From an uncultured Candidatus Saccharibacteria bacterium (GTDB lineage Bacteria > Patescibacteriota > Minisyncoccia > Phycocordibacterales > UBA5272): a stretch of DNA of 64,000 nucleotides. This document shows positions 1,259 to 40,990 of the stretch, one piece after another. Position 1 is the first letter of the stretch; the number at the start of each line of letters is the position of its first letter. The translations under genes were made by a program, and so were the position numbers. Location: positions 79,034 through 143,033 of the forward strand of contig CAZIHL010000001.1 in assembly GCA_964538815.1 (NCBI GenBank), in the 5' to 3' direction. Under the pieces are notes generated by a model. That model saw nothing but the letters and a program-made list of their open reading frames with translations. It was not told where the DNA came from and did not search any database.

Positions 1259-1942
1259 ATGAAATCATATTTAGCAGAACTAATAGGGACAGCTTTATTA
1301 GTATTAATTGGTTGTAGTGTAGCTATTTTTACAGGCGGTAATATTTTAGTAGTAGCTTTAGCTTTTGGAGTAGCTTTAACAATAGTGGCTTATTTAATAG
1401 ATGGTATATCTGGAGCGCATGTAAATCCAGCAGTAACTATAGCTTTAGCTTTATCGGGTAAATTTCCTTGGAATAAAGTTTTAGGATATATTGTTGCACA
1501 AATCGTAGGAGCAATAGTAGGGTCTGTAATTTTATATGCTATTGTCTCAAATATTGCAAACAGTATATTAATTATAAATGCAGGTTTTGCTACTAATGCA
1601 TTAAATACAGGAGTAGGCGTAATGGCTGGAGCACTTGTTGAAATATTTATGACAATGGTATTATGTTTAATTGTTTTAGATACAACAAGATCAAATTGGT
1701 TAAACAATAAAGCTTTAGTACCTTTAGCTGTTGGAGCGGGATTATTTATTGCTAATTTGGTAGCTATACCTTTAACTGGTGCTTCTATAAATCCAGCGAG
1801 AAGTATTGGTCCGGCACTTATATCTGGCCAACATTTAGATTCTCTTGGATTATTTATTATAGCTCCTATTTTTGGTGCTATTCTTGCATATTTTATTCAT
1901 AATTTTGTATTTGGAAGAGAATATCATAGACATAATCAATAA
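1259..1942 (+). CDS. MIP-family channel (aquaporin/glycerol facilitator)
   Basis: Two NPA boxes (HVNPAVT, SINPARS), six-TM hydrophobic profile, 227 aa. Confidence 0.85.
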   Translation: MKSYLAELIGTALLVLIGCSVAIFTGGNILVVALAFGVALTIVAYLIDGISGAHVNPAVTIALALSGKFPWNKVLGYIVAQIVGAIVGSVILYAIVSNIANSILIINAGFATNALNTGVGVMAGALVEIFMTMVLCLIVLDTTRSNWLNNKALVPLAVGAGLFIANLVAIPLTGASINPARSIGPALISGQHLDSLGLFIIAPIFGAILAYFIHNFVFGREYHRHNQ

Positions 1943-2062
1943 AGTTATTTTTTAAGAGGTTTTTTGATAAAACTATTATTTAAAATAATAGTTTTATTTT
2001 TTTAAAAATCATGATATTATCTTTTTGATATCTTTTCTTTTTCAAACCCTAAATTTTATAAA

Positions 2063-2383
2063 ATGGAAAATTATTTTAAAAAAGCGGTAATTATCGGTAA
2101 TGTTTTCGGTATTATTATACCAGTAGTCTTTATCATTATAGGATATTTATTTTGTATTTTAATGGATAAAGATCTTGATGTTTTAATTTTAGTTATATTT
2201 TTATCTACTCTTTATTATTTAGATACTTTATTAAATAATAAAAAAAGAATTAAAAAATGGTGGCTAGATTATAAAGGAGAAAAAGAAATAAATGTATTTT
2301 TAACAAGGATAGAATCTTTTTCTGCAAGTTATTTAAATAAGAAAAGATTTCTTTTAAGAAAAGAAATGTTTGATTCTTTTTAA
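2063..2383 (+). CDS. hypothetical small membrane protein
   Basis: 106-aa ORF with a hydrophobic N-terminal half, followed by a terminator hairpin. Confidence 0.4.
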   Translation: MENYFKKAVIIGNVFGIIIPVVFIIIGYLFCILMDKDLDVLILVIFLSTLYYLDTLLNNKKRIKKWWLDYKGEKEINVFLTRIESFSASYLNKKRFLLRKEMFDSF

Positions 2384-2409
2384 TTTAAAAAGAATAAAAA
2401 GTATCATTT

Positions 2410-2440
2410 AATCTCATTTTGCAAAAGTGAGATTTTTTCT
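2410..2440 (+). terminator. intrinsic terminator hairpin plus T-run
   Basis: aatctcatttt-gc-aaaagtgagatt followed by tttttct. Confidence 0.55.
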
Positions 2441-2468
2441 TGCAAAAATTCATAGCATATGATATATT
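2440..2468 (+). promoter_or_regulatory. putative sigma70 promoter upstream of rpoB (TTGCAA-N17-TATATT)
   Basis: -35/-10 hexamers with 17-nt spacing read directly from the sequence. Confidence 0.3.
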
Positions 2469-2594
2469 ATTTGCAATATTGACTAGATGCTTATCTTCTA
2501 TCCCCGACAGGTCTCCGTTTTGTGGGTGACTCAAGTCAATAATAATTTCGAAATTATTATTAGTTTAAATATTTAAAACGCAAAAACCAGTTTT

Positions 2595-5500
2595 ATGGAG
2601 TTTTCTTTTTTGCGGGTTAGTATTTTTGTTTTTAAATTAGAGCTATTATTTTTTATGTCTAAAACAAAAATTATTAATGAAGGTCTTTTCGTGGCCAATT
2701 TACCTAAAAAGACTTTTCAAAATTTTAGAAAGCCTTTTATCGAGTTACCAAATTTAGTAGAAAATCAAATAATTTCTTTTAAAAAACTTTTAGAAGAAGA
2801 TTTAGAATCGATTTTAAAAGAATTAAATCCAATCAAAGATTACACAGAAAAAAAATTTGAATTAGAAATTATATCTTTTGAGCTTGTCGAACCTAAATAT
2901 TCAGAAGAGTATACAAAAGAAAATAAATTGACCTTTGAAGCATCTATCAGAGCTAAAGTTTTGTTACGAAATAAAATTTTAGGTACAGAAAAAGAACAAG
3001 AAATATTTTTAGCGTCATTACCTATGATGACTGTACACGGGACATTCATAATTAATGGTGTGGAGAGAGTAATTATTCCACAACTTGCAAGAAGTGCCGG
3101 GGAGTTTTTTGATTGCGAAGAAATAAATGGAAAGAAATATTTCTCAGCAAAAATTGTACCAAATCGTGGAGCTTGGGTAGAAATTATCACAGACGATGAT
3201 AACGACATGTTTGTAAAAATAGATAAAAAAAGAAAATTTTCTGTAGTTTCATTGCTTAGAGCTATCGGTTTTTCTACAGATAAGGATATAGAAAATGCTT
3301 TTAGTGGTAAAGATTTAGCTAAAGCTTATATTATGAATTTAGTAGCTAAAGATACTATAAAAACAGCAGACGAGGCTTATATAGATGTTTATAAAAAATT
3401 AAGAGACGGAGATCTTGCTACTGTAGAAAATGCTAAATCTTATATATTATCCTTATTTGGAAAAGAGAGATATGATCTATCTCCAATAGGTAGAATGAGA
3501 TTTAATAAAAGATTTAATATCGAAGGGGACGCAAAAGAAATGAAAAGGATGACTCTTTCAAAAGAAGATATAGTTTTAATTATAAATCATTTAATTGAAT
3601 TAAATAATAATCCAGAAGCAGAAGGAGACGATATAGACCATTTAGCTTCAAGAAGAGTTCGTTTTGTAGGTGAAATGTTAGGAATGAAAATCAAAAAAGG
3701 AATGCTTCAAGTAAAAAGATATATTCAAGAAAAAATGTCAGTTATAGATACTGATACTACTTTACCTGTAACTATTATAAATCAAAGATCACTTCAGGCG
3801 AGAATTAAAGAATTCTTTACAGTGAATCAGCTTTCTCAACTTATGAATCAAGAAAATCTTCTTGCTGAAATAGAGAGTTTAAGAACCTTATCAGCTCTTG
3901 GCCCAGGAGGACTTTCAAAAGATAGAGCTGGATTTGAAGTGCGCGATGTACATACTTCACATTATGGTAGAGTTTGTCCTATTCAAACTCCAGATGGAGC
4001 AAATGTAGGTCTTATTTTAAGATTGGCAGCTTACGCTAAAATAAATGAATTTGGAATAATTGAAACTCCTTATGTGAAAGTTAAGAATGGTAAAATTACA
4101 AAAGAGATAGCATATTTAAATGCTTTACAAGAAGAAAATACTGTTATTGCTCACGCTGGAATTAATTATGATGAAACTGGAAATATAAAAGATCAATTTG
4201 TTCAAGCAAGAAAAAAAGGACATCCAGCAATAGTTTCTAAAGATGAAGTCGAATATGTGGATGTGTCTACAAATCAAGCATATTCAATTGCTACAAGTAT
4301 GATTCCATTTTTAGAACACGATGATGCTGCTCGTGCATCAATGGGTTCAAATATGCAAAGACAAACAGTACCACTAATTTTGGGCGAAGCACCATATGTT
4401 TCAACAGGAATGGAGAGTGAAGCAGCAAGACATATTGGAAGACTAGTGCTTGCAGAAGAAGCCGGAGAAGTAAAATATGTTGATGCTAATAAAATTACAG
4501 TATCAGGAAGTAATGGTAAAGATAAAACTTATACTTTAGTAAACTTTTCAAGAACAAATAACTTTACAGTTTTCTATCAAAGACCAATTGTAAATGTTGG
4601 TGATAAAGTTAAAAAAGGTCAAATTATAGCCGATTCTTCATCTACACGAGGAGGACAGATTTCTATAGGGCACAATGTTCGTGTAGCATTTATGAGTTGG
4701 AACGGAGCAAATTATGAAGATGCTATTATTATCTCAGAGAGGTTAGTAAGACAAAAAAAGTTTTCTTCTATTCATGTTGAAGAACTTGTATGTAATGTTC
4801 GTGATACAAAACTTGGAGCAGAAGTTACAACACACGATATTCCAAATGTAGGAGAAGCTAAATTAAAAAATCTTGACGAAGAAGGAATAATCAGAATCGG
4901 TGCAGACGTAAGAGCTGGCGATATTCTTGTTGGAAAGATTACTCCAAAAGGAGAAACTGAACTTACTCCAGAAGAAAGATTGCTAAGAAGTATTTTTGGT
5001 GAAAAAATACGTGATGTAAAAGATACTTCTCTAAGACTTGATAATGGAAAAAGAGGAAGAGTAATTGGTATTAAAGTTTTCTCAAGAGAAAGAGGAGATA
5101 CACTTGAAAGTGGTGTTATTAAAAGAATTCATATTGAAGTAGCACAACTTCGTGATATTTCAGTTGGAGATAAATTAGCCGGAAGACATGGAAACAAAGG
5201 TGTTATCTCAAGAATTCTTCCAATTGAAGAAATGCCATTTACAGCCGATGGAGAACCGATTGATATTATTTTGACTCCACTTGGTATCCCATCAAGAATG
5301 AATATTGGACAGATTTTAGAAATGCATCTCGGTCTTGCAGCACATACACTTGGTTATCAAGCTATGGTACCAGTGTTTGCTGGGTCAACAGATGAAGAAA
5401 TCAGAGACGAACTTGTAAGAGCTGGTTATGATGAATCTGGAACTGTAGACTTATTTGATGGAAGAACAGGAGAAAAATTTGCAGATAAGGTAGCAATCGG

Positions 5501-5921
5501 TATTATGTACATGCTAAAGCTTCACCACATGGTTGAAGATAAACTTCATGCTAGAAGTATCGGTCCATACTCCCTTATCACACAACAACCTCTTGGAGGA
5601 AAATCTCAAAATGGAGGACAAAGATTTGGAGAAATGGAAGTGTGGGCACTAGAAGGTTATGGTGCCTCACATACACTACGTGAAATGCTAACAATTAAGT
5701 CTGACGATATTACTGGTAGAAGTGATGCTTTTAATAGTATTATCAAAAATGAGACTATCAAAGAGCCAAATGTGCCAGCAGCATTGAATGTTCTTTTGAA
5801 TACTTTGAGAGGGCTTGCACTGGATGTGGTTCCACTTGTAAAAGAAGATAAAAAGAAAAAAGGTCGTAAAGAAAATTTACTAGGTGAGGAAAAATTTGTA
5901 GAAATGGAAAAGGAAAACTAA
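2595..5921 (+). CDS. rpoB: DNA-directed RNA polymerase subunit beta
   Basis: Full-length RpoB similarity, including the rifampicin cluster region and C-terminal conserved blocks. The true start may be the internal Met at 2658 (MSKTKIINEG...). Confidence 0.95.
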   Translation: MEFSFLRVSIFVFKLELLFFMSKTKIINEGLFVANLPKKTFQNFRKPFIELPNLVENQIISFKKLLEEDLESILKELNPIKDYTEKKFELEIISFELVEPKYSEEYTKENKLTFEASIRAKVLLRNKILGTEKEQEIFLASLPMMTVHGTFIINGVERVIIPQLARSAGEFFDCEEINGKKYFSAKIVPNRGAWVEIITDDDNDMFVKIDKKRKFSVVSLLRAIGFSTDKDIENAFSGKDLAKAYIMNLVAKDTIKTADEAYIDVYKKLRDGDLATVENAKSYILSLFGKERYDLSPIGRMRFNKRFNIEGDAKEMKRMTLSKEDIVLIINHLIELNNNPEAEGDDIDHLASRRVRFVGEMLGMKIKKGMLQVKRYIQEKMSVIDTDTTLPVTIINQRSLQARIKEFFTVNQLSQLMNQENLLAEIESLRTLSALGPGGLSKDRAGFEVRDVHTSHYGRVCPIQTPDGANVGLILRLAAYAKINEFGIIETPYVKVKNGKITKEIAYLNALQEENTVIAHAGINYDETGNIKDQFVQARKKGHPAIVSKDEVEYVDVSTNQAYSIATSMIPFLEHDDAARASMGSNMQRQTVPLILGEAPYVSTGMESEAARHIGRLVLAEEAGEVKYVDANKITVSGSNGKDKTYTLVNFSRTNNFTVFYQRPIVNVGDKVKKGQIIADSSSTRGGQISIGHNVRVAFMSWNGANYEDAIIISERLVRQKKFSSIHVEELVCNVRDTKLGAEVTTHDIPNVGEAKLKNLDEEGIIRIGADVRAGDILVGKITPKGETELTPEERLLRSIFGEKIRDVKDTSLRLDNGKRGRVIGIKVFSRERGDTLESGVIKRIHIEVAQLRDISVGDKLAGRHGNKGVISRILPIEEMPFTADGEPIDIILTPLGIPSRMNIGQILEMHLGLAAHTLGYQAMVPVFAGSTDEEIRDELVRAGYDESGTVDLFDGRTGEKFADKVAIGIMYMLKLHHMVEDKLHARSIGPYSLITQQPLGGKSQNGGQRFGEMEVWALEGYGASHTLREMLTIKSDDITGRSDAFNSIIKNETIKEPNVPAALNVLLNTLRGLALDVVPLVKEDKKKKGRKENLLGEEKFVEMEKEN

Positions 5922-5960
5922 AACAAATTTATTAATCTAAAAAATAATTAAAATAAAATT

Positions 5961-8900
5961 ATGAAAACAATAGATACAACAAATTTTGAAGCATTGCAAA
6001 TCAAAATTGCCTCACCAGAAGCTATTAGAGCTTGGAGTTATGGTGAAGTTACAAAGCCAGATACTATAAATTATAGAACTGGTAGAAGCGAAAGATCGGG
6101 TCTTTTTGATGAAAAAATATTTGGGCCAGAAAAAGATTATGAGTGTAATTGCGGTAAATATAGAAGGATTAGGTATAAAGATATTATTTGTGAAAAATGT
6201 GGAGTGCAAGTAACAAAATCTATAGTTCGCCGTGAAAGAATGGGACATATTGAATTGACGACTCCTGTAGCACATATTTGGTTTTTAAAAAGCATACCTT
6301 CAAAAATAGCTTTAGTTCTTGGTGAATCAACAGGAGAAGTTGAAAAAGTGGTTTATTTTGCAAATTATATTATTACAAAAGTAAATGAAAGAGAAAAAGA
6401 AGAACTTTTAAAGAATTTAGAAAGTGAATTTAAAGCAAAAATTAAATCTGCCAATGATGAAAAGACAAAAGAAAAATTAAAAGAATTAATGCTTGCAACA
6501 AAAAAAGAAATAATAGATATTCGTGAAAATAAAATATTAGACGAATTAACATATCATAGATATTCTATGAGATATAGCATAGCTTTTGAAGCTGAAATAG
6601 GTCCAGAGGCCATATATAATATTTTCAAAAAAATAAATTTAAATGAATTAGAAGAACAAATATTAAAAAAATTAGAAAAAATTTCTTCTATAGAAAAAGA
6701 AAAACAAGAAAAAAGACTCTCACTTATAAGAGCGTTTAAAAACGCTGGAATTCGACCAGAATGGATGTTCCTTACAGCTCTTCCGGTAACACCTCCAGGA
6801 ATTCGTCCAATGGTTGCTCTTGAAGGAGGAAGATATGCTACAAGTGATGTAAATGATTTATACAGAAGAGTAATTAATAGAAATAATCGTCTCTTAAAAC
6901 TAAAAGAAATTTCTGCACCAGATGTAATCTTGAGAAATGAGAAAAGAATTCTTCAGGAAGCTGTAGATGCTCTTATTGATAACTCAATGAGAAGAGGTCA
7001 AGAAGCTACAACAATTGTAGGACAAAAGAGACAACTTAAATCTCTATCAGATGGTATTAAATCAAAATCAGGTCTATTCCGTCAAAACTTACTAGGTAAG
7101 CGTGTAGACTATTCTGGTCGTTCTGTGATTGTGATTGGTCCGGACCTCGCTCTTGATGAATGTGGACTTCCAAAACATATGGTTCTTGAATTATTCAAGC
7201 CTTTTGTTATTTCAAAATTACTTGAAAGAGAATTCACCTTTAATATTCGTGGAGCAAATAAATTAATCGAAGACGGTATTCCAGAAGTATGGGAAATTCT
7301 TGAAGAAGTGATTGAAGGAAAATATGTTCTTCTAAACCGTGCTCCAACTCTTCATCGACTTGGTATTCAAGCTTTCAAGCCAAAAATGGTTGAAGGAAAT
7401 GCTATTCAACTTCATCCGTTAGTTTGTACCGCTTTCAACGCGGACTTTGACGGAGATCAAATGGCAGTCCATTTACCTCTTGGAGAAGAAGCGCAAAGAG
7501 AAGCTAGAGAGATTATGGCAGCAAATAAAAATCTTTTGAAACCAGGATCAGGAGAATCTATTGTAAACCCTCGTATGGATATGTTACTTGGATGTTTTTG
7601 GCTTACAACAGAAGTGGAAGGAGTTAAAGGGGAGGGAAAATATTTTGGTTCTCCAAATGAGGCTATCACAGCTCATGAATTTGGAATTGTAGATATTCGT
7701 GCAAAAATTAAAGTTGTCCCAACAAATAAAGAAAAATATAAAAAATTCAACGGTCAAAGATTTGAAACTACGGTTGGAAGATTAAGATTTAATTCAATCC
7801 TTCCTGATGATTTTGAATATATCAATGAACAAGTTGGTGGAAATTATATGAATAAGATTATTGATAAAATAATCATGCAATATGGTTTTGAAAGAGCGCC
7901 AGCTATTATTGATAAAATTAAATCCTTTGGATTTAAATATGCAACAATTTCAGGTACAACTTGGAGTATTGATGCAGTGAGAGTTCCAAAAGAGAAAAAA
8001 GAAATTGTAGAAAAAGGAAGAGTAGAAGAAAGAAAAATTAATGAATTCTACGAATCTGGGCTTTTATCAGAAGAAGAAAAATATCAAAAGGTTATAGAAA
8101 ATTGGCTTTCAATTAGAAAAGAAATTGAAAATATTATGCCAACAGAATCAATTGATAAATACGGTTCAGTATATAACTTAGTTACTTCAGGAGCTAGAGG
8201 TTCAATGAAGCAACTTATACAGATTGCAGGCATGAAGGGAATTATTGTTAACTCTTCTGGAAAAAATATTGATTTCCCAGTTATCTCTTCAAACAAAGAA
8301 GGACTTTCTCCAATTGAATACTTCATTACAACTTACGGTGCCCGTAAAGGTACTTCTGACACAGCTCTTAAGACCGCAGAAGCTGGATATTTAACAAGAA
8401 GACTTGTAGACGTGTCACAGGATATTATTATTTATGAAGCTGACTGTGGTACAAAGAATACTAAACTCTTAACAAAAGAAGACGTAATGGGAATTGAAAT
8501 TCCACTCTCAAAGAGTATTCGTGGTAGAGTTCTTGCACAAGATCTACTTGGCAAAGACGGGAATATAATTCTAAAGAAAGGTCATCTAGTTAAAAAAGGA
8601 GACATTAAAGCCATTACTGATAATGGTATAGAAGAAGTATATGTTTACTCACCACTTTCTTGCGAATCATTACATGGAGTATGTCAAAAATGTTATGGTG
8701 CTGACCTTGCAAGAAATGAACTTGTAAAGATTGGTGAAGCGGTTGGTATTGTGGCAGCACAGGCGATTGGAGAGCCTGGAACACAGCTTACAATGCGTAC
8801 ATTCCACTCAGGAGGAGTGGCGGGAGCCGACATTACACAAGGTCTTCCTCGTGTTGCGGAAATCTTTGAAAGACGGGTACCGAAAAATCCTGGTGTTATT

Positions 8901-27527: not shown

Positions 27528-27557
27528 TCGGGGACGGGAGAAAATCCGAACACTACA
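27528..27557 (+). promoter_or_regulatory. conserved 30-nt motif abutting a start codon (copy 1)
   Basis: ctcggggacgggagaaaatccgaacactac, near-identical to the copy at 28518..28547. Confidence 0.5.
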
Positions 27558-27560
27558 ATA

Positions 27561-28460
27561 ATGAAAAAAGAAAATAAAAATGATTCGTCAATTCTTATTG
27601 TTATAATAACTTTATTATCTTTTATTTTGGGTGTAGTTTCTTCTACTTTCATAAAAGAAATAATTGAAGAAATTCGCCTTGCGTTTCTGAGATTTATGGA
27701 AGTGAACCATACTTTTATAGTATGGTCTTTGATTGGGGTGACCACTTTTTATTTTTTTCTAGTGGTAGCATTCTTGCCTCCACCTAAAAAGAAATCTTCT
27801 CAAAAAGAAGAATCAAATCCTAACTCTGGCAGCAATAATAACTCCACTAAAGATGATCAACAGAAAAAGGAGGAAGATGAAGCTAAAAGAAAAGAAGAAG
27901 AAAGAATAAAAAAGGAAAAAGAAGAACAGGAAAGAAGACAGAAGGATGAAGAAGCTAAAAGAAAAGAAGAAGAAAGAATAAAAAAGGAAAAAGAAGAACA
28001 GGAAAGAAGACAGAAGGATGAAGAAGCTAAAAGAAAAGAAGAAGAAAAAGCCAAAAGTAAACAAGAGGAACAAAAAAGAAAAGACGAAGAATCTAAAAAA
28101 GAATCTGAAGCTAAAGATAGTACAAAAGAAAAATATCAAGGTAACTCCTTCTTTTCATTAAAAGTGGAGTCCATTATTTCCAGGATAGAAACCGCCCAAA
28201 AAGGATGGGAAATATTTAAAACCAAAAATATGGATAAACATCATCTTTATGCACAAATCTTTAGTGGATTTGTGGAAGAATTTTTGGTTCTTAATGAAAA
28301 AGAGAACAAAAGAATTTATCGCAAGCTAGCAAAGATGTTTCATCCAGAAGGTGATAATTCTGGGAAAATTGATGGAAAAGTATTAGAGTCAACTTTTCAA
28401 AAGTTGACTAATGTTTATAAAGAACATTATAACTTCTATTTTTCCAAAAAAAATATGTAG
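27561..28460 (+). CDS. membrane-anchored KE-rich repeat protein with degenerate J-domain-like C-terminus
   Basis: N-terminal TM, tandem 24-aa EEAKRKEEERIKKEKEEQERRQKD repeats, C-terminal YRKLAKMFHPEGD (HPD-like). Confidence 0.6.
   Translation: MKKENKNDSSILIVIITLLSFILGVVSSTFIKEIIEEIRLAFLRFMEVNHTFIVWSLIGVTTFYFFLVVAFLPPPKKKSSQKEESNPNSGSNNNSTKDDQQKKEEDEAKRKEEERIKKEKEEQERRQKDEEAKRKEEERIKKEKEEQERRQKDEEAKRKEEEKAKSKQEEQKRKDEESKKESEAKDSTKEKYQGNSFFSLKVESIISRIETAQKGWEIFKTKNMDKHHLYAQIFSGFVEEFLVLNEKENKRIYRKLAKMFHPEGDNSGKIDGKVLESTFQKLTNVYKEHYNFYFSKKNM
27878..28050 (+). repeat. 72-bp tandem repeat (about 2.4 copies) inside the CDS
   Basis: gaagctaaaagaaaagaagaagaaagaataaaaaaggaaaaagaagaacaggaaagaagacagaaggat repeated. 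Confidence 0.8.
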
Positions 28461-28517: not shown

Positions 28518-28547
28518 TCGGGGACGGGACAAAATCCGAACACTGCT
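28518..28547 (+). promoter_or_regulatory. conserved 30-nt motif abutting a start codon (copy 2)
   Basis: atcggggacgggacaaaatccgaacactgc, 4-5 nt before the ATG at 28552. Confidence 0.5.
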
Positions 28548-28551
28548 TCAA

Positions 28552-30144
28552 ATGAGCTTTATATTTACAATCTTAATTTGGATAGGGCTTTATTTCTTAG
28601 AATCTAAAAAAGGTATCTGGATAAGTGATAGTCCTATCTTTCAAGTGATTATGTGTTGGATTTATTTTATGAATGCTTTTGTTATGGTTAAAAGAGGTCA
28701 GACAAGAGAACTTATATTTAGACCAACACAAAGACTTTTGATAGACTTAAGGCCTGGAATTTATTTCTTTCCATTCTTATGGTGGTGGGGAGAGGTAGAA
28801 GAAGATTATGAACCTCAAAAATCTTCTTTCATTCATATTGATACGAGACAAGTTTTTAGAAAAAGAGAACTTGTTGGTAGATGGGGCTGGTTTGAAGATG
28901 TGAGTAGAGAATTTTTGATCCCTTTTATATTAAGAAGAAGTTTATGGGCGATAGTAATTTGTTTTATACTTGCCTACTTTATAGGAACTTATTCTGTAAA
29001 ATTAAAACATAAATATTTTGTTGATTATTTTCCAAAAAGGGAAGTCTCAAAAGAAAATAATTCTACTAGTTATCCTTCTACTAATTATTCAGCAACAACT
29101 CAGAATTCTTACTCATCTTCATCAAGTTCAGAAGTTTCTAATTCTAATCAAAATGCATACAATGCCAATGATGTGCAAGAAGTTCAGCAATCACAAAAAG
29201 AAGTGTGGCCACCTCCTGAGTCTTATAATTCTGCTCGTACTTGGGATAATTTGCAGCTAGATGATAACTACACAGCAGTTGCAAGTCTAAACAAAGGAGT
29301 AAATTATGTTGAAGAGGAAGGATTTTTTGTCTCGTTTTCAAGATCTAAAAATTATTATCCACATGTGTATGTGGATGGATTTTCGGAAGATAATGATTTT
29401 TTTTGCAAGTTTTTTACAGTTCACATAAATAGACTTACATTTAATAATGGTGAGGCCTGGAATAATGTGGATATGAATTTGTGTGATTATATAGAAATTG
29501 TAAAAGATAAAAAAAAAGTTGGAGAGGGACAATATAGAAGTATAAAGATAATGTTGAAAAATGAATTTTCTGGTAAATATAAGTGGCATTTAGTGTCAGC
29601 AGGGTTTGGAAATGAAAATTCAGACTTTAGGTTATTTTTAGGAGATCAATCTACATCTTCCAATGCTGAAGCAAAAAGAAAAAGTGACATAGAGCAGAAC
29701 AAGGCGGATGAAATACAGAGGCAAAATAATATTGCGGAAAAAAGACAACAAGAAGCGAGAGAAGCAGAACAAAGATCTGATTACAATGAACAAACTAGAA
29801 TTATGAGAGCAAGTATAAGATTTATTCCTCATATAATTTTGAACGGCTATGATATCAATACTGTATCTCAATATCTTTTAAAAGGATATAAGATTTCTTA
29901 TGATAGAAATTCAGATGGTTCTTTTATCATTTTGAATGATTTTAATTCTGTAATTCAAGAGGAAGAATGTTTTTATTTTACTTTTGCTTGCAGGGGGTTC
30001 TTGTATCATTCTGACAATAGAAAAAGGTTTGACGGAGCGATGAATAAATCATTAGAAAATGACGCAAATATTTCCGCTAATCTTCCAGAGTATGTTTACG
30101 TCATAAACGGAAGAAAATTTAACTTCGATGGATCAAGATATTGA
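28552..30144 (+). CDS. hypothetical membrane-associated protein
   Basis: 530 aa with N-terminal TM segments, a Ser-rich low-complexity linker and a C-terminal globular region of unknown function. Confidence 0.55.
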   Translation: MSFIFTILIWIGLYFLESKKGIWISDSPIFQVIMCWIYFMNAFVMVKRGQTRELIFRPTQRLLIDLRPGIYFFPFLWWWGEVEEDYEPQKSSFIHIDTRQVFRKRELVGRWGWFEDVSREFLIPFILRRSLWAIVICFILAYFIGTYSVKLKHKYFVDYFPKREVSKENNSTSYPSTNYSATTQNSYSSSSSSEVSNSNQNAYNANDVQEVQQSQKEVWPPPESYNSARTWDNLQLDDNYTAVASLNKGVNYVEEEGFFVSFSRSKNYYPHVYVDGFSEDNDFFCKFFTVHINRLTFNNGEAWNNVDMNLCDYIEIVKDKKKVGEGQYRSIKIMLKNEFSGKYKWHLVSAGFGNENSDFRLFLGDQSTSSNAEAKRKSDIEQNKADEIQRQNNIAEKRQQEAREAEQRSDYNEQTRIMRASIRFIPHIILNGYDINTVSQYLLKGYKISYDRNSDGSFIILNDFNSVIQEEECFYFTFACRGFLYHSDNRKRFDGAMNKSLENDANISANLPEYVYVINGRKFNFDGSRY

Positions 30145-35169: not shown

Positions 35170-35242
35170 GCCAATATAGCTCAGTTGGTAGAGCACATCC
35201 ATGGTAAGGATGAGGTCATCAGTTCGATCCTGATTATTGGCT
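35170..35242 (+). tRNA. tRNA-Thr(GGU)
   Basis: Acceptor GCCAATA/TATTGGC, anticodon stem CATCC/GGATG with loop ATGGTAA, T-loop TTCGATC. Confidence 0.85.
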
Positions 35243-35375
35243 CCAGTTTTGTAGAAAAAGACACAGAAGACCCAAGAGAGTGGGACGCGCTCCGCTCGGC
35301 AACCCCGAAAGAAAAATGTCTCTTGCTTTTTTGATTTGCGCAGGTTTTCGCTTCGGGATTTTTCGGCGGCGGCTA
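35241..35375. repeat. left arm of a 135-bp terminal inverted repeat (IR-L)
   Basis: Reverse complement of 38331..38466 with only about 4 mismatches. Begins within the last nucleotides of the tRNA-Thr (ctccag). Confidence 0.85.
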
Positions 35376-35404
35376 TGGACAAAAACGACTAAAACTGCTA
35401 AAAT
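35376..35404 (+). promoter_or_regulatory. putative sigma70 promoter TGGACA-N17-TAAAAT giving a near-leaderless transcript
   Basis: Hexamers and spacing read directly from the sequence. The ATG at 35414 lies about 3-5 nt from the predicted TSS. Confidence 0.45.
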
Positions 35405-35413
35405 TCATTTCAT

Positions 35414-38323
35414 ATGGAGAAGCCACATTTTGAAGCACGATTTGGACAAACAAAGAAGACGCTTGAATCTTCGCGAGCGGAAATAAATGAGTTTTTGAAA
35501 CAAGAAACTCTCGACGAACGAGATAGAGTTCGCCTCACTCGTGTTTTGCAATTAGTAGAACGCTATCAACCGGAACGAGAAGTTGAAGAACCAAAAGTTA
35601 ATAAGTGGCGAAGCTATCTCGAAAGCGTGTATCGTTTTTTACCGAGTCGAAAAAAAACGCAAAAACCAATTGAAAATATTTCCGCTCGCTCATATCTACT
35701 TGCTGAAAAAACAATCGCTTCACTTCGGGAACTTCAACATGTAGATTTCCAACTTGAACAAGAAAGTGGATTTTCTGAAGAAGAAGTTTTAAATCAAGAA
35801 CGACCGAGTAAAGTTGAAAGAGAGGAAACATTAGACACTTCTCTTACACTTGAATACGAAAAGAAAAATTGGGGTGTAGAACGAGTTTGTCTTGATGGTG
35901 TGCAAAATCACTTGCCATCAGACTCAAAAGGTGAGCATGTTTGGGTAAGATGTTTAGTTGGTGGCAAGTGGGTTTCTTTGACAGAAGCAAAAGACAAAAA
36001 AGATCAAATAGAAGCGGTGAGATTTGCAGACGATGGCGTTGGTTTTGATGTAAAAAATCTAGTACTTTTATATTCCACAAAAGCGGAGGAAAAAGAATCT
36101 CGCGGACAATTTGGAGAAGGTATGAAAATGATGGCCGCCGCGGCTCTGCGGGAGGGCTTGGAGCCGGAAATGGAATCTCAAGACTGGCGCGCAAAGCCAA
36201 CACCAAAAGAAGTAGAGGTTTTTGATACACGACATCAAAAAGAACGAGTTATTCAACAACTCTCGTTTAAAGTTGACTATTTAGCTGGCGAGCCAATGAT
36301 TGGTTCTCGCACTACTTTTCATAAGCCAACCGAAGCGTTTGTTGACGAGTTAATGCAAATTGAAAAGAAAGTTTTGGCTTTGCGCGAAAATTATCGTCCC
36401 GTTTTTGTGGGAAGTACGGGCGAAATTGTAGATCGTGAATCAGGAAGTCTATTTGTAAAAGGAATTTATGTTAGAGGTAAGAAAACTTTGTTTTCTTACA
36501 ACTTTGAAGATGTTGAAACAAACCGAGATCGCAACAGAATTGTTTCAGAAGGTTTAGAAAGAAGAATTGCAAAAATAGTTCAAGAAATTTCCGATAAACG
36601 ATTGGTTAAAACAATGCTTCAAAAAAGTATTGTGGAACCGGACGCAGTTGAAAGTTCTTTTTATGATCTAAGAGCCGAACATCCAACAGTATGGATTGAG
36701 GGATTTTATGAAGCATTTGGAAAAGATGCAGTTCTGGATACAGGTTTCAAAATCCCCGATACTTTCAAAGATAAGCCGTTGAACAAAGTTAAAGTGCCGT
36801 CTGGCATGCAGAGTTTGCTTTTGCGAGCGGGAGTAAAGACCGACCAAGAGGTCACACCTGATTTTTGGGAGGAAACAATCCCGACTTCCTTAACTCTTGA
36901 ATACGGAAAAGATATTTGGAATGAGGAAAGAATTTTACTTGACGCGGTGCAAAATCATTTACCGCACGATTCCGGCGGTTTAAATATCGGTTTGCGTTTC
37001 AAAACTAAAGATGGCAAGTGGCACTCATTTAGAGATTTACCAGATATTAAAGACGAAGAGGTAGAGTCCGTAAAAATTTATGATGATGGACGCGGATATG
37101 ACTCTCGTTTGCTCGGTTTTTTCTACTCTACAAAAGGAGAGGGTGAAAGCACCGGAAAATTTGGCGAGGGTTTGAAAATGTTGTGCATAGCTTCACTACG
37201 CAAGGGTATTGATATGACTTTGCGTTCTCAAAATTGGTCATCGAAACCGAGAGCGTTACGACAAGAAGTTGATGGAAAGCAAATTGATCAGCTTGTTTTT
37301 GATGTAATTCACGCTGTTAAAAAACAAGAAATGGACGATGATGAGGGGCTTTATCAAAGCAGTTCAACTACATTTTCAAACCCGACGCCGGAATTATTGC
37401 AAGAATTTCGCCAAATTAACAAAAAAGTTCTCGCAATAGAAAGAGCAAAACCAGTAGAAAGAACTTCAAATGGAGATGTACTTTCGCTTGATGGAGGAAT
37501 GGTTTATGTGCGAGAACTTTTGATTCCAGGAGACCACAATTTGCTTTTCACTTATCATTTGCCGAGATTGGAAATTAAAAATCGAGACCGAAGTTTTGTT
37601 GACCAACAAGAACTTACTCCGGCTATCGCAGGGGTATGGTCGGAGACCGAAAATCCTGAAGTTATCAAAAGTTTTCTTTTCAAAGCAAATTTGGAAGCGC
37701 AAAAAGGTGGCGGAAAAGATAAGGTCGAATTTTCGATGGATTTTACCCCCAAAGATACTGAAAACTGGAAAAAGATTTTCGAGGAAGTTTTTGGAAAAGA
37801 TACCGCTATTCGCGATATGCGCTCGGAAGATTTTGACGCTATGCAACAAAATATGCATGTCGGTTTGGAACTTGTATCTTTTCCAAGCGCAACATATCAA
37901 GTTTTGAAAAGACTTGGATTGCCAACATATGAATCTCGTTTATCTGAAATGACCGATGTGGAGCATATTCCTAACGAAGAGCTAACAGCAGAAGAAAAAG
38001 CGTTATTGGAGGTTTTAACAGCGATTGATGAATATTTACCGAACAATAGGCCGTCTGAGATTAAAGTCTATAAGCGCAAAACAGATGGTCAAAAAGTTGC
38101 AGCTGGTTTTGCTGATGGTGTAAATATTCATCTTTTGCGCGAAATTCTATCTGATTTTACTCACGCGGCAGATGTGTATGTTCACGAGAAAACGCATCAT
38201 AATACCGGTGGCGCACAAGACGCAAGTTCAGATTTCAGAAATTACCTAAGTTTTGCGCTGGGCAAGATGGCGTTAGATCAATTGAAAAAAGTTCGACCAG
38301 ATTTAGTAAAGACAGAGAGTTAA
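35414..38323 (+). CDS. 969-aa protein with two tandem GHKL (Bergerat-fold) ATPase modules and a C-terminal HExxH motif
   Basis: A duplicated module of about 350 aa. Each copy has an N-box-like LD[GA]VQNHLP.D, a G1 box DDG[VR]G[FY]D and a G2 box G[QK]FGEG[ML]K (Hsp90/MORC-like). C-terminal VYVHEKTHH. Foreign codon usage (CGN arginine, higher GC). Confidence 0.7.
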   Translation: MEKPHFEARFGQTKKTLESSRAEINEFLKQETLDERDRVRLTRVLQLVERYQPEREVEEPKVNKWRSYLESVYRFLPSRKKTQKPIENISARSYLLAEKTIASLRELQHVDFQLEQESGFSEEEVLNQERPSKVEREETLDTSLTLEYEKKNWGVERVCLDGVQNHLPSDSKGEHVWVRCLVGGKWVSLTEAKDKKDQIEAVRFADDGVGFDVKNLVLLYSTKAEEKESRGQFGEGMKMMAAAALREGLEPEMESQDWRAKPTPKEVEVFDTRHQKERVIQQLSFKVDYLAGEPMIGSRTTFHKPTEAFVDELMQIEKKVLALRENYRPVFVGSTGEIVDRESGSLFVKGIYVRGKKTLFSYNFEDVETNRDRNRIVSEGLERRIAKIVQEISDKRLVKTMLQKSIVEPDAVESSFYDLRAEHPTVWIEGFYEAFGKDAVLDTGFKIPDTFKDKPLNKVKVPSGMQSLLLRAGVKTDQEVTPDFWEETIPTSLTLEYGKDIWNEERILLDAVQNHLPHDSGGLNIGLRFKTKDGKWHSFRDLPDIKDEEVESVKIYDDGRGYDSRLLGFFYSTKGEGESTGKFGEGLKMLCIASLRKGIDMTLRSQNWSSKPRALRQEVDGKQIDQLVFDVIHAVKKQEMDDDEGLYQSSSTTFSNPTPELLQEFRQINKKVLAIERAKPVERTSNGDVLSLDGGMVYVRELLIPGDHNLLFTYHLPRLEIKNRDRSFVDQQELTPAIAGVWSETENPEVIKSFLFKANLEAQKGGGKDKVEFSMDFTPKDTENWKKIFEEVFGKDTAIRDMRSEDFDAMQQNMHVGLELVSFPSATYQVLKRLGLPTYESRLSEMTDVEHIPNEELTAEEKALLEVLTAIDEYLPNNRPSEIKVYKRKTDGQKVAAGFADGVNIHLLREILSDFTHAADVYVHEKTHHNTGGAQDASSDFRNYLSFALGKMALDQLKKVRPDLVKTES

Positions 38324-38330
38324 TTTCTTG

Positions 38331-38466
38331 ATAGCCGTCGCCGAAAAATCCCGAAGCGAAAGCCCGCGTAAATCAAAAAAGCAAGAGACATTTTTCTTTC
38401 GGGGTTGCCGAGCGGAGCGCGTCCCACTCTCTTGGGTCTTCTGTGTCTTTTTCTACAAAACTGGAG
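38331..38466. repeat. right arm of the 135-bp terminal inverted repeat (IR-R)
   Basis: Reverse complement of IR-L. Ends with ctggag (revcomp ctccag). Confidence 0.85.
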
Positions 38467-38530
38467 TGTCTTTATGACTTCGCTCGAACTTACTTTATCA
38501 AAAATTCCTAATGAATCCAAATGCGGACTC

Positions 38531-38574
38531 GGTTTTGCCAAACTATTTTTCTGGGGAAAAGGATTGGCAAAACC
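38531..38574 (+). other. stable hairpin (11-bp stem ggttttgccaa/ttggcaaaacc, 22-nt loop)
   Basis: Perfect complementarity seen directly. Followed by a GC-rich segment and a T8 run at 38636..38643, possibly a terminator for read-through from the 969-aa gene. Confidence 0.4.
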
Positions 38575-38705
38575 TCGGCTGTTTTCCCGCCCGCAGGAGG
38601 GGTCTGGGGAGGAATCCGCATGGGCTGGGCTTCCGTTTTTTTTGTGGCTAAAATGGCTTAAAAACAAAGGTTTTTTAGAGTTAAACTAGGTTATAGCGAT
38701 TTGGC

Positions 38706-38734
38706 TTGACAAAATAGACTAGATATGCTATACT
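38706..38734 (+). promoter_or_regulatory. consensus sigma70 promoter TTGACA-N17-TATACT
   Basis: Perfect -35 hexamer, 17-nt spacer, near-consensus -10. Predicted TSS about 38741. Confidence 0.6.
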
Positions 38735-38954
38735 TAACGCATAATTTGAGGCGGTAAAAATACTCCTTAAATTATGTAAATTGTTCTTTGATAAGCGAGA
38801 TTAGTGAAAATTTCTTTTGCTCTACTACTTCGTGAGTAGCATAGTATGTATCTCAATTTGAGGTATCTAGTGTGCTACTCATGTTGAGGAGCCCTTGATG
38901 CGAGGAACGTATCATTAAAAAAAAATTTTTGATATGATATTATGGTCTAACGAG

Positions 38955-39698
38955 ATGGGCGAGAGGGGGCGAGGAGCCTGGCTGTTATTTATAAAGGATG
39001 ACGAAGTCATCGTCTTCCGCGGCCAGAACATCCCCGGTGTGGTCGTCGTGCGCGGCACGGACTACACCAAGAACGGGAAGTGGTCTCACACCACCTACCG
39101 CCTCCAGCTTGTCCCTGGAGTTCGCCAGATAGCCGGATACTCCGGCTGGGAAACCGGTCGGTTCGTCGAAGGCCTCGGCTCCGCCGTTGGCTGCGCAACG
39201 CCCGACACGTGGGCGGACACGGCCAAGGCTCTTGGGGTTTCGGTCCCGAGCGTGATGGAGTTCCTGCGGAGCTGGCGTCCGAAAGCCGCGGCGAAGCTGG
39301 ACGAAGTCGAGCAGGCGTTGGCCGATCTCGAGGAAGCCTCCTCTCAACAGGAGACCGACTCGGTGATCGTTACCGTCTCCTTCGGTTCGCCGACCAACCG
39401 CGCCATCAGCGATGGCTACTGGGTGGCGCCGAAGGCGATCCCGGGCTACAATGCGGAGATCCACCTGAAGGATCGCTCGCAGGGCTGGAACGAGGGGAAC
39501 ATCGAGGTTGTCGGAATCTCCGGCACCATCCTCTCGGTCAAGCACTCGGCCGGAATGCACGGCGGTTACTACGCCGTGTCGGTCGCGGTGATACCCGGAA
39601 CGGAGACCGAGATCCCGCCCTTCGAGACCAGCAAGCCTTGTAACGGTGGTAACACCGTGTTGGGCGATGCCCTCCGTAAGGCAGGGCTCCGCAGCTAG
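38955..39698 (+). CDS. hypothetical protein encoded by a very high-GC, GC3-rich foreign CDS
   Basis: A 744-bp frame with GC3 almost entirely G/C and balanced amino-acid composition. The alternative frames are Arg/Gly-rich junk. The ATG at 38955 marks the switch from AT-rich to GC-rich sequence. The in-frame upstream ATG at 38934 is an alternative start. Confidence 0.6.
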   Translation: MGERGRGAWLLFIKDDEVIVFRGQNIPGVVVVRGTDYTKNGKWSHTTYRLQLVPGVRQIAGYSGWETGRFVEGLGSAVGCATPDTWADTAKALGVSVPSVMEFLRSWRPKAAAKLDEVEQALADLEEASSQQETDSVIVTVSFGSPTNRAISDGYWVAPKAIPGYNAEIHLKDRSQGWNEGNIEVVGISGTILSVKHSAGMHGGYYAVSVAVIPGTETEIPPFETSKPCNGGNTVLGDALRKAGLRS

Positions 39699-39747
39699 TC
39701 TCGTATCGTATTTCCAGTTTGAGAGGACTGGGTTAACAAAACCTCTC

Positions 39748-39799
39748 TCTGTCGATAAGTGTGTTACTTATCCTGATGAGTCCGAAAGGACGAAACAGA
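39748..39799 (+). ncRNA. hammerhead ribozyme, type III topology (open stem III)
   Basis: tctGUC cleavage site, then stem I GATAAG-tgtgtta-CTTATC, then CUGAUGA, then stem II GTCC-GAAA-GGAC, then GAA, then ACAGA pairing with UCUGU. Every conserved core position is present. Confidence 0.8.
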
Positions 39800-39931
39800 T
39801 TGTACCTTGAGAAAATTTAGTTCTCTCGTGAGTAGCGCAATGGATGTCTTAAAAAGATTTCTAGTGCTGTCGGATACTTCGGACCAATTACGAGAGGGGA
39901 AATAAAATAAAAATAAATTTATTGTATAGAA

Positions 39932-39968
39932 TAACTCCATAGCTGTCAGTCGGGAGTTATTTTTTATT
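39932..39968 (+). terminator. intrinsic terminator
   Basis: taactcc-(14-nt loop)-ggagtta followed by ttttttattt. Confidence 0.6.
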
Positions 39969-39999
39969 TCTCACAATTTTGTTAAAATGTGCTTTAAGG

Positions 40000-40073
40000 C
40001 CATCTTAGCTTAGTTGGTAGAGCACTTCACTCGTAACGAAGAGGTCTCGAGTTCGATCCTCGGAGATGGCTCA
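40000..40073 (+). tRNA. tRNA-Thr(CGU)
   Basis: Acceptor GCCATCT/AGATGGC, anticodon loop CTCGTAA, T-arm TCGAG-TTCGATC-CTCGG. One A:C mismatch at the base of the anticodon stem. Confidence 0.8.
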
Positions 40074-40096
40074 AAATTTTGTTATTATTTATATAA

Positions 40097-40990
40097 ATGC
40101 GAGATAAAGAAGAAGTAAAAAAAGAATTAATAGCATTAGAAGCTCATTTGTATGAGAATGATTTTTGGACAGATAAAAGCCATGCTAACGAAGTTCTACA
40201 AAAAATAAAAGAATTGAAAATGGAGCTGGAAGGTGGAAGTATTCTTGATGCTGGAAGCGCTACGATGAATATTTTAGCAGGAGCGGGAGGCGACGATAGT
40301 GAAGACTTTGCTCGAATGCTGGTAAACATGTATTTAAAATATTTTGAAAGAAATGGATGGGAAGTATTTAATCTTCACTCAAATAGTAATGACCATGGAG
40401 GCTACAGAAATATCTCTATAGAAATAATAGGTAAAAATGTTTATGGAAAATTAAAAAATGAATCAGGAGTCCATCGTCTTGTGCGTATTTCTCCGTTCAA
40501 TAGCAACGCAAAGAGACATACGAGCTTTGCAATGGTTGAAATATTACCAGTACTACCAAAATTAGAATTTGAGAAATTTAAATCAAATCTAAATTCTGAC
40601 GATATAGAAGTAGAAACTTCAAAATCATCTGGACCAGGTGGTCAAAATGTAAATAAAAGAGAGACAGCAGTGCGAGTAGTACACAAACCTACAAATATTG
40701 CCGTGTCAGTATCAACCGAAAGAAGTCAAGAACAAAATAAAGAAAAAGCTTTTAATATGCTCTATGCGAAGCTTTTTAAATTAGAAGAAAGAAGACAAAA
40801 AGCTGAAAAAGAAGGATTACAAATTTCTAAAACGGTAGAAATAGAGTGGGGAAATCAGATCAGAAATTATGTTCTACATCCGTATAAATTAGTAAAAGAT
40901 TTGAGGACTAATATAGAAACAAGCGATGTAGATAAAGTTTTAGAAAAAGGTGAAATCGAAGAATTTATAGAAGCGGAAAAAAGTATTTAA
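40097..40990 (+). CDS. prfB: peptide chain release factor 2 (N-terminally short)
   Basis: SPF tripeptide (RISPFNS) and GGQ motif (SGPGGQNVNK), 297 aa. Confidence 0.85.
   Translation: MRDKEEVKKELIALEAHLYENDFWTDKSHANEVLQKIKELKMELEGGSILDAGSATMNILAGAGGDDSEDFARMLVNMYLKYFERNGWEVFNLHSNSNDHGGYRNISIEIIGKNVYGKLKNESGVHRLVRISPFNSNAKRHTSFAMVEILPVLPKLEFEKFKSNLNSDDIEVETSKSSGPGGQNVNKRETAVRVVHKPTNIAVSVSTERSQEQNKEKAFNMLYAKLFKLEERRQKAEKEGLQISKTVEIEWGNQIRNYVLHPYKLVKDLRTNIETSDVDKVLEKGEIEEFIEAEKSI

Follow-up and report, generated by a model that had tools for sequence, protein, structure and literature searches.

A GC-rich gene in an AT-rich Patescibacteria genome is probably the cargo of a mobile, ribozyme-flanked expression cassette

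How does a GC-rich gene come to lie in an AT-rich genome, with the change in composition falling at the two ends of the gene? The question is raised by one reading frame in a stretch of 64,000 nucleotides, here called the window, from an uncultured Candidatus Saccharibacteria bacterium (assembly GCA_964538815.1, contig CAZIHL010000001.1, positions 79,034 to 143,033, forward strand). The open reading frame (ORF) from 38955 to 39698 (744 nt) is 63.4% GC, with 61, 49 and 81% GC at codon positions 1, 2 and 3. Taken from an ATG at 38934 (765 nt) it is 62.6% GC, with a third-position GC fraction (GC3) of 0.80. The 5′ flank (38706-38954) is 32.5% GC, the 3′ flank (39699-39998) 36% and the whole 64-kb window 29.6%, and a profile in 50-nt steps places the jump at the ORF ends. 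The 40 other non-overlapping window ORFs that encode 150 aa or more average a GC3 of 0.164 (sd 0.040), which gives this ORF a z-score of 16; the highest of the 40 is a neighbouring gene for a 969-aa GHKL protein, at 0.296 (z 3.3). An original prediction had described the two-thirds GC, the saturated third positions and the AT-rich flanks in these terms, and the calculation bears it out. It had then argued that flanks normally travel with a transferred gene, and concluded that the ORF was either captured precisely as a cassette behind resident regulatory DNA, or was a re-coded or engineered insert. Our answer is different. The coding sequence (CDS) has probably come in as cargo, within a self-contained and horizontally mobile expression cassette typical of Patescibacteria (the candidate phyla radiation, CPR), and now lies in a tRNA-Thr island of a Paceibacteria-like genome that is rich in AT.

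Window 38586-40698 recurs without a single difference (100% identity) in a Logan assembly made independently (L088, from SRR12712853; seen in 3 samples). These 2113 nt run across both GC junctions, the tRNA-Thr and prfB. The GC-rich feature is therefore contiguous and is not a chimera. It is also a gene. A sequence search found 226 homologues of the predicted protein at 55-87% identity, nearly all of them unnamed, in Patescibacteria metagenome-assembled genomes and in groundwater, marine and other metagenomes; a profile search enlarged the family to 607 clusters at 50% identity. Compared with eight of the homologues, the ratio of nonsynonymous to synonymous substitution rates (dN/dS) is 0.12-0.37, at dS 0.43-1.9, and we therefore take this to be a real gene under purifying selection. 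The same ratio and the codon periodicity argue against a structured non-coding RNA in place of a CDS, which was considered and rejected.

The family occurs in two forms, a long one of about 345 aa with a C-terminal domain of about 89 residues, and a short one of about 250 aa. The window gene (38934..39698, forward strand, 254 aa) is of the short form: compared with its homologue in contig L003, it has lost about 266 nt in frame. In the family alignment MILWSNEMGERGRG is aligned with M..ITWSDGIGSRGR, which moves the start from 38955, as first proposed (247 aa), to the ATG at 38934. The first codons are AT-richer than the rest of the ORF. A weak promoter-like site, TTAAAA-17-TATTAT (38915-38943, 9/12 positions), lies within the leader and ORF start and overlaps ATG 38934. 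It is possible that it would start transcripts a few nucleotides before ATG 38955, giving a short-leader mRNA in the style of the host for the 247-aa form.

The evidence that the gene did not arrive alone comes from its relatives. The TARA contig L003 aligns at about 78% to window 38541-39629 and 39628-39866, and the aligned parts comprise the upstream module, the promoter (GGCTTGACA...TGCTATACT), the leader, the CDS, a pseudoknot after the stop codon, a hammerhead ribozyme and a complete second leader. By blastn, window 39628-39866 corresponds to L003 1367-1607, where this complete leader precedes a second GC-rich gene. The non-coding flanks of the L003 cassette are 44-46% GC and its coding part is 65%. 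The AT-rich promoter and untranslated regions (UTRs) of the window gene are thus homologous, at 72-81% nucleotide identity, to cassette flanks in unrelated contigs, and therefore arrived with the gene. The argument that flanks had failed to travel falls away: promoter, leader and ribozyme all came along. The cassette, as we read it, would consist in order of an upstream boundary module, a near-consensus promoter with an extended -10 element, a three-hairpin leader, a GC-rich ORF, and a pseudoknot joined to a type III hammerhead.

The upstream boundary, which we call the U module (38520..38700, forward strand), precedes the cassette promoter. It has 72-81% nucleotide identity by blastn to stretches just upstream of the cassette promoters in L003, L059, L064, L069, L072, L074 and L075, and also to the sequence that precedes the GHKL gene in L092. 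Together, U module and promoter are conserved in at least ten loci. The promoter itself (38706..38734, forward strand) is of sigma-70 type, TTGACA-N17-TATACT with a TG extended -10. It had been described as a consensus promoter, agrees with the consensus at 11 of 12 positions, and is kept in L003, L009, L064, L069 and L074.

A structured leader follows at 38822..38933 (forward strand). It contains a long hairpin P1 (38833-38881), a conserved linker CTACTCATGTTGAGGAGCC (38875-38893) and a second hairpin P2 (38896-38914). The hairpins that the original prediction had noted here are real, with the 5′ UTR folding at z=-5.6 relative to shuffled controls. In an alignment of 30 sequences (A3), from loci fetched with a 19-nt leader pattern, the leader forms three hairpins with 96% of cells paired and 13 compensatory pairs. 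None of 500 shuffles reaches the observed values, and slid controls are 31-47% paired. The window leader scores 108 bits with a covariance model (CM) built for the leader, R1, whose training set includes the window sequence. The leader is therefore a covariation-supported RNA motif, and is absent from Rfam. The window copy departs from the family in one respect: the P3 hairpin and the Shine-Dalgarno (SD) sequence are replaced by AT-rich, SD-less sequence at 38916-38933. An upstream ORF within the linker was considered and rejected, as it is not conserved.

The 3′ side of the cassette is equally well defined. Just after the stop codon there is an H-type pseudoknot (39714..39747, forward strand), made of stem A (CCAG 39714-39717 with CTGG 39728-39731) and stem B (GAGAGG 39721-39726 with CCTCTC 39742-39747). 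It abuts stem III of a type III hammerhead ribozyme (39746..39801, forward strand; Rfam RF00008), about 50 nt past the stop codon. The ribozyme has stem I at 39754-39772, a CUGAUGA core at 39773-39779, stem II at 39780-39791, GAAA at 39792-39795 and the end of stem III at 39799; the predicted cleavage site is 3′ of C39753. Matches to the Rfam Hammerhead_3 family are found in the window, L003, L006 (after a Csx3 gene), L009, L014 and L016. There are 23 distinct homologous ribozymes, of which 18 follow a cassette gene directly, and all 23 have an intact core and C or U at position 17 (H, never G, at the cleavage site). An alignment of 18 sequences over pseudoknot and hammerhead (A4) has 96.9% of cells paired and 17 compensatory pairs. 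Within it, pairing is 89% and 94% in the two pseudoknot stems, where compensatory changes include GAGGGT/ACCCTC, GAGAGG/CCTCTC, GAGGAT/ATCCTC and GGGAAGTT/AACTTCCC. All three hammerhead stems are 100% paired, with I and II closed and III open, and 12 of the 16 pairs show compensatory change. A scan of IMG/VR with the exact hammerhead core returned generic ribozymes only.

Beyond the ribozyme lies a truncated second copy of the leader (39818..39907, forward strand; CM R1 30.1 bits, E 1.6e-5). Only the 5′ half of P1 is present, the homology stops at about 39866, and no cassette gene follows. Both the hammerhead and this second leader (39818-39866) had been missed in the original prediction. Next comes an intrinsic-terminator-like hairpin, AATAACTCC...GGGAGTTATT with a T run (39930..39966, forward strand), before the tRNA-Thr(CGT). 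It was seen in the minimum free energy fold of 39699-39975, and had been passed over by a pattern scan because its loop is longer than 8 nt. With its second leader truncated, its C-terminal domain deleted in frame and its P3 and SD replaced, the window copy is, to judge from its sequence, a one-gene remnant.

Elsewhere the same parts carry other genes. The 19-nt leader pattern retrieved 29 metagenome loci, in which a common leader stands ahead of at least ten unrelated families of GC-rich ORFs (GC 0.53-0.68, GC3 0.63-0.92). The cassette families at these loci have no Pfam match. A cargo with a family match is the Csx3 ring nuclease: in L006, Csx3 is followed by the hammerhead and then by the target gene. 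L006 is a Saccharibacteria contig, and (at 1774-3456 and 5808-6158) it has both the GC-rich cassette Csx3 and an AT-rich operon of an ATPase matching the PADLOC Csx3-AAA model and a Csx3 gene; upstream are a serine recombinase and an ORF that on inspection resembles a terminase C-terminus. The gene order is shuffled, with family FAM8 before the target gene in L013, L015 and L020 and after it in L016 and L021. A reading of FAM8 as DUF1874/AcrIII-1 is unsupported by Pfam and was dropped. Many homologues are on contigs of about 1.2 kb, because assemblies break at the repeated modules. In IMG/VR the leader pattern gave one chance match (L041), within a coding region that on inspection resembles a viral helicase.

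The arrays have ends. In several genomes they lie between near-perfect inverted repeats, 104 to about 200 nt long, that consist of U-module sequence (equivalent to window 38520-38627), with inverted U-module copies at the far end of the arrays in L059, L072, L075 and L092. The repeats are at 2644-2747/5894-5997 in L059, 11874-11994/13351-13471 in L072 and 12366-12567/14383-14584 in L075; some arms end at contig or locus ends. Such an array looks like a non-autonomous element with terminal inverted repeats (TIR). In L074, a DDE transposase-like ORF of rve type (2781-4031, reverse strand; E 2.6e-5, below the Pfam gathering threshold) lies between the U module and the cassette promoter, and may represent either an autonomous form of the element or an insertion sequence of no relation to it.

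In the window the cassette is part of a variable island of 4.75 kb (35246..39998) between tRNA-Thr(GGT) (35170-35245) and tRNA-Thr(CGT) (39999-40072). The island holds an inverted-repeat-flanked GHKL gene and the target cassette, and no other ORF. Two relatives, L095 and L097, retain the backbone KH-trmD-yggU-tRNA-Thr(GGT)...tRNA-Thr(CGT)...prfB-ftsE-ftsX, but the tRNA-Thr genes there enclose a ferric-reductase-like gene instead; the island with GHKL gene and cassette has thus been inserted at a hot spot or has replaced other DNA there. Like other tRNA-associated islands it is tRNA-adjacent, deviant in composition and missing from the site in relatives. The same leader with a different CDS is found elsewhere, where it precedes at least ten families, but not at this site in L095 and L097.

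By its RF2 the host belongs among Paceibacteria and Nomurabacteria-like Patescibacteria (78-80% identity). The host is nearly without Shine-Dalgarno sequences, which precede 1 of 41 window ORFs (at least 150 aa). The regions upstream of window ORFs are 0-24% GC, and often have TATAAT-like boxes 10-15 nt before the ATG. The sequence suggests that host mRNAs are short-leader or leaderless. From the replacement of P3 and SD in the window leader, together with the AT-richer first codons, we infer an adaptation to host initiation.

The composition of the cargo has a history that can be read from its synonymous sites. The gene is 56-70% GC in every host, with host GC ranging from 27 to 64%. Lineage-specific synonymous third-position changes number 168 from GC to AT and 28 from AT to GC, and are biased in the same direction in all ten lineages (6:1 in the window lineage, 45:2 in L017), where compositional equilibrium would give 1:1. 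On this evidence the ORFs descend from a GC-rich ancestor and are in decay. Since the window copy has few private changes, its acquisition is recent; the window ORF would be only beginning its decay toward host composition. In some hosts (L017, L008, L012) GC3 is already 0.58-0.66. The sharp GC step arises because the cargo ORFs come from a putative GC-rich pool, while the promoter and regulatory RNA of the cassette itself are AT-richer. For genome scanning, this means that a GC step at exact ORF borders can be explained by a natural cassette with AT-rich regulatory parts, without capture behind host DNA or engineering.

Other explanations of the locus have been proposed or can be imagined. 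If a foreign CDS had been captured precisely, in the manner of an integron, behind a resident host promoter and UTR, the GC step would fall at the ORF ends as it does, and the gene indeed opens like those of the host, with AT-rich, SD-less sequence over the 18 nt in front of the ATG and on into the first codons. But promoter, leader, pseudoknot, ribozyme and U module all have homologues around this same gene, and around other GC-rich genes, in many unrelated contigs; the relatives with the same backbone have no such DNA at the site, and the island has no integron integrase ORF. Capture behind host DNA is thus very unlikely; of the earlier proposal the cassette stands, and the resident regulatory DNA does not. 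An assembly chimera or contamination would account for the extreme contrast in composition (z=16), and is harder still to believe, given the identical independent assembly across both junctions into prfB, the homology of the AT-rich flanks themselves to cassette flanks elsewhere, and the same kind of GC-rich insert in other AT-rich genomes (L017, 27% GC; L061, 30%). An engineered or codon-re-coded insert might be suspected from the consensus promoter, a hammerhead core identical to that of common minimal ribozymes, and an insulated design resembling synthetic parts. Set against this are hundreds of natural, diverged environmental homologues (dS 0.4-1.9), RNA covariation that indicates long natural evolution, and the lack of any similarity to 72,556 plasmids (PLSDB, blastn) or 50,697 GenBank phage records (tblastn with the target protein), and we give the idea next to no credence.

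Two further alternatives accept a natural gene. One is that high GC3 is maintained by selection on the mRNA, for resistance to A/U-specific RNases, for RNA structure, for slow translation or for use in a GC-rich partner cell. Members do remain GC-rich in hosts of 27-64% GC despite dS of up to about 1-2, and the trait is common to all cassette cargo genes, among them a Csx3 ring nuclease. However, the GC-to-AT bias in every lineage (168:28) and the fall of GC3 to 0.58-0.66 in some hosts are what neutral decay predicts, and distant phage homologues have ordinary GC3 (0.20-0.47). The decay signal thus disfavours a functional GC-rich coding, of the kind that would let mRNAs survive A/U-specific RNases, and we regard selection on the mRNA as unlikely, though the least unlikely of the alternatives. 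The other, raised in the original prediction, is that the CDS supplies the effector of a two-gene system with the neighbouring GHKL ATPase. The two genes are neighbours on one strand within one island; their upstream modules are homologous and their promoters look so. Yet they do not co-occur: tblastn finds no GHKL homologue at about 55 loci that have the target family or its leader, and the target in turn has no homologue at 6 GHKL loci. The GHKL gene is moreover bracketed separately by an inverted repeat of its own, of 143 nt here and 142 nt in L092. A partnership is accordingly very improbable; independent cargo, the other possibility offered at the time, is the part that held.

The reading of the CDS as cargo of a mobile cassette is therefore preferred, although a number of observations weigh against it. 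The island (35246-39998) has no integrase or transposase ORF, and the sole relative with a transposase-type match is L074, where the rve match is weak. The target cassette has a left U module only, with no inverted copy anywhere in the 64-kb window. The window hammerhead, at 44.2 bits (E 1.8e-7 in a 5.2-kb search), falls below the RF00008 gathering score of 48.5, which is a curation threshold and no biochemical criterion; related hammerheads also score below it, at 38-48 bits. The invariance of the 19-nt linker in A3 is by construction. Regarding the product, matches to the helix-turn-helix (HTH) family HTH_10 are typically 12-15 bits, compared with a cutoff of 23.1. Finally, that processing would make each cistron an insulated and stabilised unit is something that we infer. 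A more general proposal may be made. We suggest tentatively, and with somewhat less than even confidence, that inverted-repeat-bounded arrays of ribozyme-punctuated cassettes are an undescribed class of mobile element in Patescibacteria, of which the window contains a remnant and which shuffles and spreads at least ten uncharacterised gene families, among them Csx3 and the present HTH-like protein, that the hammerhead is a natural cistron insulator, and that the genes plausibly serve in counter-defence or conflict.

On the basis of these structures, the hammerhead would cut the transcript after each ORF. The upstream mRNA would end in the pseudoknot with a 2′,3′-cyclic phosphate, and the next mRNA would begin with a 5′-OH, the folded ribozyme and the leader hairpins. 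In the window, all that cleavage would do is shorten the 3′ UTR, upstream of what remains of the second leader and of the terminator at 39930-39966.

Bacterial hammerheads have been known to flank genes since 2011, their purpose being unexplained. In prophages they flank single genes or short blocks of varying identity, and processing of the transcript into single-gene mRNAs has been proposed (Perreault et al., 2011, PMC3088659). The present ribozymes resemble these in lying between genes of inconstant identity, often with an accompanying pseudoknot. They differ in belonging to a fixed module of pseudoknot, hammerhead and three-hairpin leader, within arrays that open with a promoter and U module; in their uniformly GC-rich, unannotated cargo; in occurring in Patescibacteria genomes and not in recognisable prophages; and in having the pseudoknot 5′ of stem III with no link between loops I and II. 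The system is widespread, modular and defined at the level of sequence, and its fixed module between interchangeable genes makes the hypothesis of cistron processing and insulation directly testable. A search of the literature for hammerheads together with Patescibacteria or CPR found nothing relevant, and no account of the cassette system was met with in the searchable literature. The system is one of ribozyme-flanked mobile genes, distinguished by its leader, its pseudoknot-hammerhead module, its inverted-repeat-bounded arrays and its GC-rich cargo.

The comparison extends to other systems. As in Hammerhead_3 of RF00008, the core is full, stems I and II are closed and III is open, and cleavage is predicted after GUC or GUU; unlike the replication elements of viroids and satellites in that family, these are DNA-encoded elements of bacterial mRNAs, at 38-48 bits. 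An Obelisk-like or viroid-like RNA replicon was considered and rejected, as the element is DNA-integrated, has a promoter and shows a single ribozyme polarity. Synthetic insulators of the RiboJ type consist of the sTRSV hammerhead and a hairpin, placed between promoter and ribosome-binding site. By analogy, the hammerhead followed by a hairpin 5′ of the CDS would here give a uniform processed 5′ end whatever lies upstream. The cassette is natural, however, and would also leave a pseudoknot-capped 3′ end on the upstream mRNA.

Like integron cassettes, these are promoter-proximal arrays of single ORFs, mostly of unknown function, with a repeated structured element, shuffled order and variable content. 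In contrast to integrons, the repeat is an RNA-processing and leader module and long inverted repeats bound the arrays; neither an IntI integrase nor attC was seen in the island, no attC-specific model having been run. With tRNA-adjacent islands, and with foldback-like TIR elements or miniature inverted-repeat transposable elements (MITE), the locus shares its deviant composition, its position adjoining a tRNA gene, its absence from relatives, and the long inverted repeats round related arrays and the GHKL gene. It differs from them in that the island has no integrase or transposase and no direct att repeats were identified in it (the repeat at the tRNA 3′ end, 35241-35383, is inverted and not direct), and in the presence of a left boundary only at the target cassette. 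The cassettes would offer GC-rich dark-matter genes a new means of spreading among ultrasmall CPR bacteria, and they add two new objects: an RNA leader motif outside Rfam, and a confidently modelled protein family of more than 600 clusters for which no structural relative was found.

The protein was analysed further. It has no match in Pfam, PHROGs, PADLOC or NCBIfam, no significant structural match in PDB or BFVD, and none in a profile search of PDB sequences, in agreement with the statement that it contains no recognisable domain. The AlphaFold2 model has a pLDDT of 89.8, and shows a helix-turn-helix at residues 86-107. In 48 of 120 family members there is a sub-threshold match to PF04967 HTH_10 at AKALGVSVPSAMEFLR (best E 7e-4); the window protein itself has no HTH_10 match. 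Our best guess is that the product is a DNA-binding, HTH-containing factor in conflict between mobile element and host. Large phage contigs in IMG/VR contain more distant homologues, at 27-57% identity. One of these contigs, L032 (5294-17766; 28% GC), has a homologue of 42% identity and 48-50% GC, whose neighbours are a DndB-like gene, weak macro and SLOG matches, an N6/N4 DNA methylase and a Pnkp-Rnl1 RNA-repair fusion. The neighbourhood looks like one of counter-defence or RNA repair. Longer members of the family (P0220, P0291, P0338 and others) were considered as domain fusions, but contain no informative Pfam domain, and a transpeptidase match in P0278 is apparently a gene-call chimera.

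The neighbouring GHKL gene is a mobile unit itself. Its ORF (35414-38323) is bracketed by the 143-nt inverted repeat (95%; 35241-35383 and 38324-38466), the left arm of which begins inside the 3′ end of tRNA-Thr(GGT). There are 93 homologues, many of them on contigs of about 3.3-3.7 kb. The homologue in L092 (83% nucleotide identity) adjoins tRNA-Thr(CGT), and its inverted repeat, made of the U module, is 99% identical. Family matches are limited to a weak HATPase_c and to PHROG 6077, of no known function. The GHKL promoter, TGGACA-17-TAAAAT (about 35377-35405), looks homologous to the cassette promoter on inspection. There is an internal duplication in the ORF (35822-35916 and 36869-36963; 72% over 95 nt), which gives two GHKL-like halves 1047 nt apart.

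Two minor observations may be added. Elsewhere in the window, a near-identical 28-nt motif, TCGGGGACGGGA(G/C)AAAATCCGAACACT, occurs at 27529-27556 and 28519-28547, directly 5′ of the ORFs 27561-28460 and 28552-30144. It matches no Rfam family at gathering score, and could be a cis-regulatory element. Within the target family, a second gene subfamily (L013, L015, L018, L020, L024, L019 and L016) has a different conserved 5′ leader, …GCGAATAGGACG…CAGTCCGAAG…TTCGCA…CACGAGCAGAAGGCAAG, about 150 nt upstream of the target homologue. This subfamily also has a conserved 3′ element and a terminator, and its leader looks like another unclassified structured RNA.

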